Part shown: in pieces, positions 3,001 to 4,340 of the stretch
Position numbering within the stretch: the first letter of the stretch is position 1
Layout of the letters: every line of letters starts with the position of its first letter
IMG/VR virus record: IMGVR_UViG_2541047172_000025
Source of the DNA: a virus
Lineage: Duplodnaviria; Heunggongvirae; Uroviricota; Caudoviricetes
Strand: one strand, 5' to 3'
Length of the DNA stretch: 4,340 bases
Made by a program: the position numbers

Positions 3001-4340
3001 CTTTTTCGTTACGCTCTACCATCGCCGTTTCTTTGGCTGTATCGAGGGTAAGGTGGTAGTCTTTTTTCCCTCGCCCATAACCTATTTCCCGTTTCTGGGA
3101 AATAGCTATATAGTCCTGATTTTCAACGAATCCGTACTCTTCAATACGTTCTGTAATCCACGATGCAAAGCGTTTACCTACTCCAAGAAAAGTATGTAAA
3201 TCACGGGCATTAACGAGAAGAGTGGTTTCGTTGGCGATAGTGCCGTTGAATACGGGGATGAGTTGACTGGTCATGATGACCTCCTTATTTGTTTAGTTTA
3301 TAACCGCCAGTTAGTAGCTGGCGGTCGGGTGTCAACTGAGCCAAATAAGAAGCTCTGGGCATATTCCCCTTGCGGGTGTTGTATTACGCCTCTCCACCCG
3401 ACCTTTGTACGGATGTAACTATGCCAAATTGCAGGCATAAAAAAGCCGCAAAGCTATCGGGTGCGGAGACCGCTTATTTGTTCAGTGCGGTCAGTATGCG
3501 ATAGCTCTGGAGGATTTGTCAATCAGCGGAATATTGATGAACGGGTAACGGTAAATGCCTCATCCAGAAAATTAACGCAAATTCGCATCGCAAACTTGCG
3601 TTAATTATCTGAAATATCAAGTTAAATCCCCTTAAATGTTTGGGGCACTATTGGGGCAAAATGTGGTTGTTTGGGGCATATTTGGGGCAAAAAAGAACGT
3701 ATAAAGAACGGTGTAAAATTGATTTCTTCATGGTCAAAATGAGGTGTAACAGATTGAAAAATATATGCTCTTGGACGATCTTCGGTAATTCTGTGTTTTT
3801 AATGCTTCATGGTTTCAATATGTCCGTACATGGAATAATAAAGCACCAGAACTTTAGCCATTTCTAACCACTCCTCGTGTTATCTCTATTCCGTAGCGAT
3901 TCGCTACCACTTATTTAAAGATAAGACGTCCTTTTCAGAGTGCAAATTTCACAACCACTTATTTGATTTATAACAACTTTCACAAGCACGCAATTTTGTC
4001 GCAAAATGACACATTTTTATCTCATCGCGTTTTTTTAATCATAAGAGCGGCTTATGGATAATTATTGGAGATGATATCTATTCTCGCTAAGAAGCTGTTG
4101 CAGGATATTACCAAACGCGGGTAGAAACACGTCAGTTCACTAAGCTTAGTCCCACGTAGCGAAAATATGGCAGCCGCCATACGCCGCGTTAATTCTAGCA
4201 ATATGATGTCTATACCCAGACGGAGGTCAGTAATGGCAAACCATCGAGGCGGTTCCGGCAATTTTGCAGAAGACCGCGAAAGAGCATCAGAAGCAGGTAA
4301 AAAAGGTGGCAAGAGCAGTCACGGCAAAAGCGACAACTAG

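Follow-up and report, generated by a model that had tools for sequence, protein, structure and literature searches.

Introduction

One of the closest described counterparts of the element analysed here is lambda attP (arm sites P1, P2 and P'1-P'3, Xis sites X1-X1.5-X2 and IHF sites), in which a heterobivalent integrase with an N-terminal arm-binding domain acts on arm sites that repeat, on either arm, a motif with no relation to the core. The int-proximal arm sites of lambda are adjacent to one another, ~55-90 bp from the core, and the int-distal sites lie ~110-150 bp out, with the Xis repeats on their core-proximal side. The attP arms of P2 and 186 carry one pair of sites each, with a motif loosely similar to the one reported below (TGGGGCA / TGGGACA), and work with Cox or Apl. 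In the Pseudomonas phage phiCTX (AB008550), the R1/R2 repeats annotated by the depositors flank the core with one direct-repeat pair per side, 11 bp apart and identically oriented, and IHF sites are annotated too. A second class of element is found alongside: tandem repeats spaced by one helical turn serve as binding sites of recombination directionality factors (PMC7498355), as in the sites for lambda Xis, the tripartite Gifsy-1 Xis site and that for 186 Apl (PMC7498355, PMC2603039). Finally, the iterons of lambdoid origins and plasmids are phased direct repeats as well.

Here we analyse a 4,340-nt stretch of viral DNA (the window) that carries a phased repeat array beside an attachment site. 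The element is of a known kind; what is new is a comparative arm-site map for the 933W/Sp5 integrase family. In the searchable literature, which covered few subscription journals, we found no published arm-site map for the 933W, wrbA or Stx integrases or for PF12167 proteins, nor any account of the motif in an attP. The arrangement shares with lambda the integrase type, the motif repeated on both arms and the approximate placement of arm sites and Xis repeats, the Xis repeats being candidates and the arm sites predicted in our case. It differs from lambda in the arm-binding domain (PF12167 versus PF09003), in the motif (TTGGGGCA versus a CAGTCACTAT-like consensus), in its strict 11-bp pairs of one orientation, with 2-4 tandem pairs in the 933W lineage, and in having a DUF1233 excisionase in place of lambda Xis. 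P2 and 186 resemble the family in having one pair per arm and differ in integrase subgroup and in using Cox or Apl rather than a DUF1233 Xis; we found no report of a counterpart to the 933W-lineage amplification in P2/186-type arms. The integrase of phiCTX is a 31%-identical homologue of the 933W/Sp5 integrase, although its motif is CTGGGAACA, its pair follows the int stop codon and its core is a tRNA-Ser gene.

Results

The window carries the right junction of a wrbA prophage

Between positions 2105 and 4340 the window is 99.7% identical to VT2-Sakai, and homology to the uninterrupted wrbA of thousands of E. coli genomes begins at window position 3808. The wrbA start codon occupies 3859-3861 on the minus strand. 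The window carries attR, where a 933W/Sp5-type Shiga-toxin prophage in wrbA meets host DNA on its right; of the phage attachment site, this is the int-distal ('P') arm. Its core is as follows.

3812-3818, no strand assigned: 7-bp attR crossover core GTTTCAA at the prophage/wrbA junction (attachment site annotated in AP000422, AP004402 and AP005153)

A 75-aa ORF at 3640-3867, over the array, was treated as spurious; it runs across the att core and is interrupted on integration. The same ORF appears as hypothetical 'ORF-43/B44' in some records.

A helically phased array lies 112-175 bp from the core

The first-pass annotation had counted four copies of TTGGGGCA and two of AAAGAACG some 100-170 bp from the core. 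Exact searches, by which the repeats are defined throughout, reproduced both the counts and the positions: TTGGGGCA occurs exactly four times in the window, always on the plus strand (3640, 3651, 3671 and 3682), and AAAGAACG twice (3692 and 3703). Site starts fall 175, 164, 144 and 133 bp (TTGGGGCA) and 123 and 112 bp (AAAGAACG) to the left of the core centre, close to the range first given, with successive spacings of 11, 20, 11, 10 and 11 bp along the array. Dinucleotide shuffling predicts 0.12 copies of TTGGGGCA, and none of 200 shuffles reached four; for AAAGAACG the expectation is 0.20 and 2 of 200 shuffles reached two, so that this repeat is weak when taken alone. The four TTGGGGCA copies amount to two copies of a 31-bp unit, 25 nt of which align at 88%. 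Tandem Repeats Finder, run on the window, reported no repeats, the array being too short and interrupted.

3637-3667 and 3668-3698 (3637..3698), plus strand: two tandem 31-bp units with one pair each, from the repeat alignment
3640..3658, plus strand: predicted distal arm-site pair, TTGGGGCA cta TTGGGGCA, the extra copy made by duplication of the 31-bp unit
3671..3689, plus strand: predicted core-proximal arm-site pair, TTGGGGCA tat TTGGGGCA, 11-bp spacing, at the family-typical position

GenBank depositors had labelled 3637..3698 as repeat 'arrangement g / gg, region III'.

Taken by itself, the 7-mer TGGGGCA is common enough, with 12 copies in the 65.5-kb phage record against ~11 expected. 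The non-random part is its clustering and 11-bp pairing rather than its frequency: all the 11-bp pairs in that record, and five of the six TTGGGGCA copies, lie at the two att arms.

The same pair is present on the integrase-proximal arm

At the far prophage end, the int-proximal sites read TTGGGGCA/CTGGGGCA. They form a TTGGGGCAcgtCTGGGGCA pair of the same orientation and 11-bp spacing, 67-78 bp beyond the core and inside the 3' end of int, as read both from the VT2-Sakai attL and from records of contiguous attP. No complete E. coli genome or phage record covers more than 60% of the window, and this arm is known only from phages that are 99.5-100% identical to the window on the window-side arm, AP000422, the source of attL, being 100% identical. 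The search of the other prophage end that had been suggested for the two motifs came out differently for each: TTGGGGCA was found as this pair, and the int-proximal arm has no copy of AAAGAACG. The TTGGGGCA motif, at four sites on one attP arm and two on the other, bears no relation to the core GTTTCAA. In the contiguous attP, the second site of the 3671-3689 pair is exactly 200 bp from the first site of the other arm, and across 10 contiguous attPs the distance from the proximal window-side site to that site is 196-200 bp.

The integrase gene lies outside the window, and the protein was taken from near-identical phages. It has an N-terminal Arm-DNA-bind_2 domain (Pfam PF12167, residues 7-70, E 6e-26) and a Phage_integrase catalytic domain (residues 202-395, E 2e-17), and Stx2a-phage integrases belong to the arm-binding IntBPP-1 subgroup (PMC8138268).

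These observations bear on the first-pass suggestion that the repeats might be an iteron-type array, that is, iterons or operators for a replication or transcription regulator with no role in recombination. Such elements are also phased direct repeats. However, the ori iterons of the phage are annotated inside gene O (AP000422 13443-13538), 50 kb from the array, which has no adjacent initiator gene, AT-rich unwinding region or origin, and the motif flanks the att core on both sides at a fixed distance and travels with int. The suggestion therefore finds no support and is, in our estimation, exceedingly improbable. A promoter or terminator reading was dropped as well, since no promoter-like or terminator-like site was predicted in or beside the array.

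The pair follows the integrase and is constrained as DNA

Among 44 integrase homologues of at least 52% identity, from many enterobacterial genera, 39 have an exact TGGGGCA-N4-TGGGGCA pair at the int 3' end and the remaining five have close variants. An 11-bp-spaced pair persists at this position in homologues down to 28% identity, with a different motif from clade to clade (TGGGGCA, TGGGACA, TGGGACC and TGGGAACA). A motif-blind search of homologues at 28-45% identity recovered pairs spaced by exactly 11 bp, again with clade-dependent motifs (TGGGACA, TGGGACCA, TGGGAACA and TGGGGGC). Relatives with 37-65% integrase identity keep one such pair on the window-side arm at 196-200 bp, and the sequence between the arms is unrelated in more distant relatives. 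In IMG/VR, the inter-arm gap peaks at 188-193 over 50 contigs, and an integrase homologue ends at the int-proximal pair in 29 of 52 pattern matches. The motif tracks int and the att core through unrelated backbones, including podoviral Stx phages, Hendrixvirinae and an Aeromonas phage, and a variant is found in the P2-like phiCTX. Across relatives that differ in core and backbone, the sites are thus observed to co-vary with the integrase while the 11-bp spacing and the ~196-200 bp distance are kept. This is what would be expected from the earlier remark that such sites would be specific to this recombinase, the pair following integrase homologues across genera as its motif drifts.

Since the int-proximal pair lies within a coding sequence, it could in principle be kept only for the integrase C-terminal peptide A-P-x-M/V-P-H/Q, the pairs on the window arm then being coincidental. 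In homologues of at least 52% identity the pair is indeed coding and the peptide is conserved. The nucleotide pattern argues otherwise. The two motif copies sit in different reading frames, and its two prolines are each held to a single codon, a different one in each case (CCA in 44 of 46, CCC in 44 of 46). Third-position entropy is 0-0.26 bits within the motif, against 0.6-1.9 bits at conserved flanking residues, so synonymous motif positions are frozen while neighbouring codons vary. In more distant homologues, at 44-45% identity, the pair falls beyond the int stop codon and is non-coding, and every contiguous attP examined has identical pairs ~200 bp away in non-coding DNA. Taken together, the frozen synonymous sites, the use of two frames and the non-coding placement indicate that selection on the int 3' pair acts on DNA and not on protein, and led us to reject the coding-constraint reading, which we regard as scarcely credible.

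The proposal that the repeats are arm-type sites is therefore supported by comparison: pairs occur on both arms, the integrase has an arm-binding domain, the paired architecture is conserved among homologues and tracks their clades, and the inter-arm distance is fixed. From these we conclude that the TTGGGGCA repeats are very probably the arm sites through which the integrase, aided by its excisionase, folds the prophage end as it moves into or out of wrbA.

A second repeat pair has the layout of excisionase sites

Immediately core-proximal to the TTGGGGCA sites, and on the window-side arm only, lies the second repeat.

3692..3710, plus strand: AAAGAACG gta t AAAGAACG, direct repeats 11 bp apart, candidate excisionase (Xis, DUF1233) sites

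The pair shares the layout of the directionality-factor sites introduced above, being head-to-tail, one helical turn apart, on one arm and beside an integrase arm site. It differs from them in having only two clear AAAGAACG copies; relatives have 2-3 AAARWWCG-like copies, and the second copy is degenerate in Fels-1. Its absence from the other arm is expected if it is an Xis site, such sites being on one arm only. At the equivalent position, five of eight independent attPs have a second direct-repeat pair with 10-11 bp spacing (Fisher combined p 3e-8). A DUF1233 xis gene adjoins int, and AAARWWCG-like repeats accompany an Xis helix of the form TG(L/M)(K/R)xGT(I/V)xRAR, whereas a clade with another Xis helix has a palindrome in place of these repeats, Xis type being confounded with integrase clade in both cases. 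The AAAGAACG repeats fit excisionase sites, an assignment less certain than that of the arm sites, and TTGGGGCA and AAAGAACG most likely belong to two different proteins.

A different division of labour would have TTGGGGCA itself as the excisionase (directionality-factor) site and not as an integrase arm site. Tandem direct repeats one helical turn apart are the typical layout for such factors (PMC7498355), and the TTGGGGCA array occupies the arm on which lambda Xis binds. Against this, the motif is on both arms, whereas directionality-factor sites are normally on one; TTGGGGCA-type pairs follow integrase divergence and are unchanged across phages with different Xis types; phiCTX has a like layout, yet no Cox/Xis has been identified there (PMC3448106); and the Xis-like position is already taken by a separate, phage-specific repeat pair. 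We consider assignment of TTGGGGCA to the excisionase very improbable, and retain integrase arm sites as the preferred reading.

Other candidate elements of the arm

Three further features lie on the same arm.

3565..3611, no strand assigned: 22-nt inverted repeat, TTAACGCAA ... TTGCGTTAA (hairpin -18.1 kcal/mol, z -5.6)
3747..3759, minus strand: IHF-like match TTTCAATCTGTTA lying between the repeats and the core, one mismatch to WATCAANNNNTTR; a consensus match only and a weak candidate bending site
3768..3782, no strand assigned: conserved block CTCTTGGACGATCTT, 30-44 bp from the core

The IHF consensus scan gave one-mismatch matches only. Two other attPs have comparable matches at this offset, and five have them at an H'-like position. 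The block at 3768..3782 (in pattern form, CTCYTGGRCGATYTT) is found at the same offset in Fels-1, phi330, Fraca, SaltyDalty and IdasGreatGrand despite their differing cores, and is a second candidate Xis or host-factor site, which weakens the assignment of AAAGAACG to Xis. In the 524 kb of loci examined, palindromes of the inverted-repeat type (TTAnCGCAA/TTGCGn'TAA) occur only beside arm-site pairs, and they show symmetric base changes in another integrase clade. The inverted repeat may form an outer part of this att arm.

The number of 31-bp units varies in the 933W lineage

Most family members have one pair per arm. To judge from the repeat alignments, the 933W lineage has amplified a 31-bp unit to give two, three or four pairs: there are two units in Sp5 and the window, three in 933W / Stx2 phage I and four in Min27. 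Natural variation in the window-side array was confined to unit numbers of 2-4, and loss was never seen. The proximal pair (3671-3689) is the ancestral, family-typical one, and the distal pair (3640-3658) is its duplicate, displaced by 31 bp, or three helical turns.

The distal pair, absent from most relatives, may contribute nothing. On this account only the proximal pair is functional, and the distal one is a neutral product of unequal crossing-over between 31-bp units. Consistent with this, nearly all relatives have a single window-side pair at the fixed distance of 196-200 bp, the unit count differs (2, 3 or 4) among closely related phage records, and the units are near-identical, which implies recent events. 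The phages 933W, Sp5 and Min27 are all inducible. On the other hand, the added units stay in helical register (31 bp being ~3 turns), both sites are intact in every unit variant seen, including O104:H4-type arms of ~91% identity, and Fels-1 likewise has two pairs, with diverged spacers. Intact sites, a maintained register and the two pairs of Fels-1 argue for retention rather than decay. We regard neutrality of the distal pair as a real possibility, though short of probable.

Discussion

The results presented above suggest a model for the whole junction, to which we attach a probability of roughly 0.85: the window holds an attR P arm with TTGGGGCA integrase arm sites and putative AAAGAACG Xis sites. 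The four TTGGGGCA sites would be bound by the N-terminal arm-binding domain of a heterobivalent tyrosine integrase, each protomer placing its N-domain on an arm site and its core-binding and catalytic domains on the core. Bending of the ~130 bp between arm and core would allow the two to be bridged and a recombinogenic complex to be assembled. In excision, Xis protomers would sit head-to-tail on the two AAAGAACG repeats beside the proximal pair and bend the arm; the complex would then pair with attL, and strand exchange within GTTTCAA would restore wrbA and release the circle. There, the arm sites of both arms would lie 200 bp apart, ready for integration. The positions, the phasing and the presence of the motif on both arms are observed, as are the arm-binding domain and the conservation and co-variation with the integrase; from these we infer binding, bending and the assignment of AAAGAACG to Xis.

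The mechanism is a textbook one, and the gain is in annotation rather than in concept. The arm consensus, with NTGGGGCA pairs at 11-bp spacing and ~196-200 bp separating the arms, provides a template for binding and mutation work. The arm-pair signature could also be used to find true prophage ends, and in some cases arm pairs may have been published as 'attachment sites'.

A more speculative extension, which we think unlikely though not negligibly so, is that the 11-bp TGGGGCA pair is a deeply conserved code, read by the proteobacterial 933W/BPP-1-type integrases and also by a large group of integrases from Firmicutes phages, among them Streptococcus suis phage SMP. SMP-type integrases have ~20-27% identity where it is detectable and match no Pfam arm domain; the same pairs flank them, with inter-arm gaps shifted by about one helical turn.

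The 933W/Sp5 integrase family moves many Stx phages (the wrbA, yehV and yecE integrators) as well as enterobacterial prophages. The variation in the window-side array raises the hypothesis that the number of 31-bp units affects Stx2 prophage excision. If the deep arm-site code is real, amplification to 2-4 units would tune the excision and integration of Stx phages, and hence the mobility of the toxin genes.

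Prophage end and attachment junction

From position 2105 to 4340 the window matches the right end of the VT2-Sakai (Sp5) Stx2 prophage (AP000422) at 99.7% identity; within 3300-3830 identity is 100% to VT2-Sakai and 99.5-99.8% to 933W and its relatives. Homology to uninterrupted wrbA, seen in approximately 5,400 E. coli genomes, starts at 3808. From this boundary and the positions of the crossover core and the wrbA start codon, it follows that the window ends in the attR of a wrbA-integrating Stx prophage.

1-325: hok/sok-type toxin-antitoxin module, at the left edge
1-213, minus strand: hok/mok-like ORF
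151-325, minus strand: match to sok antitoxin RNA (RF01794, 114.9 bits)
366-2104: mosaic segment of minus-strand small genes, including ead/Ea22-like and DUF4752-like
3315-3403, minus strand: Rfam sRNA-Xcc1 match (RF02221, 69.1 bits)
3522-3493: sigma-70-like promoter (TTGACA-18-CATACT) directed at the sRNA-Xcc1 match
3565-3611: 22-nt inverted repeat, hairpin of -18.1 kcal/mol (z -5.6)
3747-3759: IHF-like match with one mismatch
3768-3782: conserved block CTCTTGGACGATCTT, 30-44 bp from the core
3812-3818: 7-bp crossover core GTTTCAA
3859-3861, minus strand: wrbA start codon, with ymdF next

Immediately beside the core, the attL of VT2-Sakai (544-561 of fetched locus L090) reads catcGTTTCAA, and attR (3808-3818) and uninterrupted wrbA share catgGTTTCAA. 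On the other flank attP and attB are alike for a few bases (cATGTC and tATGTC). The left 2 kb is a mosaic variant, in which the hok/sok module is only 92% identical to its Sp5 counterpart, hokW/mokW/sokW, and segment 3307-3522 is a module also present in many phages without this att arm. Since none of the complete E. coli genomes and phage records searched contains the whole window contiguously (best coverage 60%), findings on the integrase and on the opposite prophage end come from phages 99.5-100% identical over this arm, with AP000422 (100%) as the source for attL.

A paired repeat on both arms of attP

The first-pass annotation had described a helically phased repeat array and proposed that it comprises arm-type recombinase sites. 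The repeats are as it counted and placed them: TTGGGGCA occurs at 3640, 3651, 3671 and 3682 (0.12 copies expected in shuffled sequence; four reached in 0 of 200 shuffles) and AAAGAACG at 3692 and 3703 (two reached in 2 of 200). At offsets of 0, 11, 31 and 42 bp, the TTGGGGCA copies all lie on the same side of a helix with 10.5 bp per turn, and together they make up a 31-bp unit present twice.

Circularly permuted records (AP005153, AP004402) gave attP in one piece. There int, on the minus strand, has its 3' end 22 bp past the core and encodes an integrase of 436-444 residues; a 99-residue excisionase gene comes next. The last int codons contain TTGGGGCAcgtCTGGGGCA, which places sites 67 and 78 bp away from the centre of the core in the orientation and with the 11-bp spacing of this arm, and the same pair is found in the attL of the integrated VT2-Sakai prophage. 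Of the six copies of TTGGGGCA in the whole of a 65.5-kb record, one is in IS629 and the other five are at the two arms, where all 11-bp-spaced pairs lie. The suggested check, a search of the other prophage end for either motif, was positive for TTGGGGCA, as the pair in the int 3' end, and negative for AAAGAACG, which was not found on the int-proximal arm in this record.

The integrase combines an N-terminal Arm-DNA-bind_2 domain (PF12167, E 6e-26) with a tyrosine-recombinase catalytic domain, and the gene next to int encodes a putative excisionase of the DUF1233 family (E 1e-30). Stx2a-phage integrases were assigned by Smyshlyaev et al. to the 'IntBPP-1' subgroup, whose arm-binding domain has a three-strand/one-helix fold (PMC8138268). 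In P2-like phages each flank of the core carries a pair of direct repeats read by the integrase N-domain (consensus tgTGGaCa; PMC3448106), and the window arm would be the functional equivalent of such a lambda/P2-type attP arm. No arm-site map for 933W/IntBPP-1 integrases was found in the searchable literature, which mostly excludes subscription journals.

We conclude that the TTGGGGCA repeats are very probably integrase arm sites (probability about 0.85); the presence of the motif on both arms and its travelling with the integrase support the arm-type reading for this motif. The other possibility raised initially, an iteron-type regulatory array, is rejected together with an operator array, as the ori iterons are located in gene O and the motif is carried with int across unrelated phage backbones; no promoter or terminator was predicted at the array. 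Binding of TTGGGGCA by excisionase (Xis) rather than integrase is unlikely, because the motif lies on both arms, varies with integrase divergence rather than with Xis type, and has its layout preserved in phiCTX, for which no Cox/Xis is known.

Conservation with the integrase

Taking one genome per species, we collected 75 loci encoding integrase homologues. Exact TGGGGCA-N4-TGGGGCA stands at the int 3' end in 39 of the 44 with integrase identity of at least 52% (Citrobacter, Enterobacter, Klebsiella, Pantoea, Edwardsiella, Erwinia, Yersinia and others), and the remainder have near variants such as TGGGACA or CGGGGCA. The two copies are read in different frames, as GCC-CCA and xTG-CCC-CAy, and their proline codons are each fixed differently (CCA in 44 and CCC in 44 of 46 distinct sequences). 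Third-position entropy within the motif is 0-0.26 bits, compared with 0.6-1.9 bits at nearby upstream residues of equal conservation, and in homologues of 44-45% identity the pair lies 3' of the stop codon. These patterns indicate that constraint on the int-end pair acts on DNA. Constraint on the encoded peptide is rejected by the frozen synonymous codons, the use of two frames and the pairs beyond the stop.

In homologues of 28-45% identity, a motif-blind search for 9-mers recurring 10-12 bp apart close to the end of int gave pairs spaced exactly 11 bp. Their motif shifts from clade to clade: TGGGACA, TGGGACCA (Halioglobus, Haliea), TGGGAACA / TGGGATCA (Kistimonas, phiCTX) and TGGGGGC. In the N-domain alignment, the second beta-strand region reads R-V-R-E in TGGGGCA clades and R-C-R-E in clades with TGGGACC, TGGGAACA or TGGGGGC; this position is a possible specificity determinant, confounded with phylogeny.

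Inter-arm geometry and the extra pair

Contiguous attPs of phages with integrase identities of 37-65% (IdasGreatGrand, phi330, Fraca, SaltyDalty, mEp460, one Providencia and one Aeromonas phage) carry the int-end pair and a same-orientation second pair across the core. phiCTX shares this layout, with motif CTGGGAACA, annotated by its depositors as repeats R1/R2. Sp5, 933W and phi367 have 200 bp between the proximal site of this arm and the first site of the other. Six other attPs have 196-197 bp, although the DNA between the sites is largely unrelated in these six; in Fels-1 of Salmonella the distance is 196 bp, provided that both annotated 17-bp core halves are kept. In phi330 it is 215 bp, extended by a 20-bp tandem duplication (cacgcgcgtaacgtgacagg x2) at the presumed core. 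The int-distal arm of phi330 (locus L083) has three consecutive arm sites.

Scanning IMG/VR for two pairs 175-205 bp apart gave 52 matches in 50 contigs. Gaps peak at 188-193 (35 of 52), with side clusters roughly a helical turn shorter and longer (175-181 and 198-201). The main peak contains all 27 matches with an integrase 51-100% identical to that of 933W and one of the two at about 35%; in all 28 the integrase gene terminates at the int-proximal pair.

Most relatives have a single pair on each side. Fels-1, like the window, has two on its int-distal arm, and in the 933W lineage the 31-bp unit has been amplified.

31-bp units and arm sites on the int-distal arm
This window and Sp5: 2 units, 4 sites
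933W and Stx2 phage I: 3 units, 6 sites
Min27: 4 units, 8 sites
O104:H4-type phages: 2 units (first site TTGGGGCG), 4 sites

The depositors of the GenBank records annotated this variation as 'arrangement g / gg, region III' and assigned it no function. The pair at 3671-3689 occupies the family-typical distance, which marks the one at 3640-3658 as extra; that the extra pair is a neutral duplicate is a tentative reading, with odds somewhat below even. In phi191 (locus L005) the proximal pair reads TTTGGGCA / TTTGGGCA, each one G short, and the integrase match is broken into three pieces; these anomalies look like homopolymer sequencing errors rather than biology.

Candidate excisionase sites and further arm elements

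The AAAGAACG pair is confined to the int-distal arm, where it adjoins the proximal arm site; the Xis sites of lambda have the equivalent position relative to arm site P2. A second direct repeat with 10-11 bp spacing, at most 55 bp core-proximal to the arm pair, recurs in five of eight independent attPs (individual p ≤0.014; Fisher combined 3e-8). Phages whose Xis helix reads TG(L/M)(K/R)xGT(I/V)xRAR have two or three AAARWWCG-like repeats there (AAGTTCGTTA x2; AAAGAACG / AAAATTCG / AAAGTTCA; GAAAATCG / AAAGTTCG / GAAATTCG) and a clade with another Xis helix has none, Xis type and integrase clade being confounded. Recombination directionality factors bind head-to-tail on tandem repeats one turn apart (PMC7498355), and Gifsy-1 Xis uses three imperfect direct repeats (PMC2603039). 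On balance, we slightly favour the AAAGAACG pair as excisionase sites.

Block CTCTTGGACGATCTT stands at an equal offset in six attPs with differing cores, among them those of Fels-1, phi330, Fraca, SaltyDalty and IdasGreatGrand. It has no IHF consensus match and could be an additional Xis, integrase or host-factor site. Palindromes of the type at 3565-3611 (TTAnCGCAA/TTGCGn'TAA) were found only beside arm pairs in 524 kb of fetched loci; in a second integrase clade (L098, L106, L107, L119, L123, L124, L133, L140) the palindrome is placed differently and its base changes are symmetric.

The same pairs beside Firmicutes-type integrases

For about 19 of the 52 IMG/VR matches, a relative of the 933W integrase was undetectable or very distant. 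In at least 12 of these the ORF ending at the pair encodes a Firmicutes-type integrase (MW[VI]E..GK.R..): L113 (846-1079), which is Streptococcus suis phage SMP, and L105, L108, L112, L115, L117, L118, L120, L122, L134, L138 and L141. TGGGGCA-N4-TGGGGCA pairs flank the attP of integrases with little or no similarity to that of 933W, at gaps of 175-181 or 198 bp as against 188-193 bp; in SMP the int-proximal pair is directly downstream of the int stop codon. Pfam scans of four such integrases found the catalytic domain, an N-terminal SAM-like domain at gathering score in two, and no match to an arm-binding model. For several S. agalactiae prophages, a published table gives the 'attachment site' as TTATAGTTGGGGCGAATTTGGGGCATAA (PMC11357604), which looks like an arm pair present at both prophage ends, maybe mistaken for the crossover core.

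The array is a further example of an established type of arm site, an annotation that is solid, testable and unsurprising. If the Firmicutes-type pairs are indeed the same sites, an arm code would be common to 933W-type and distant integrases, which would be of moderate interest.
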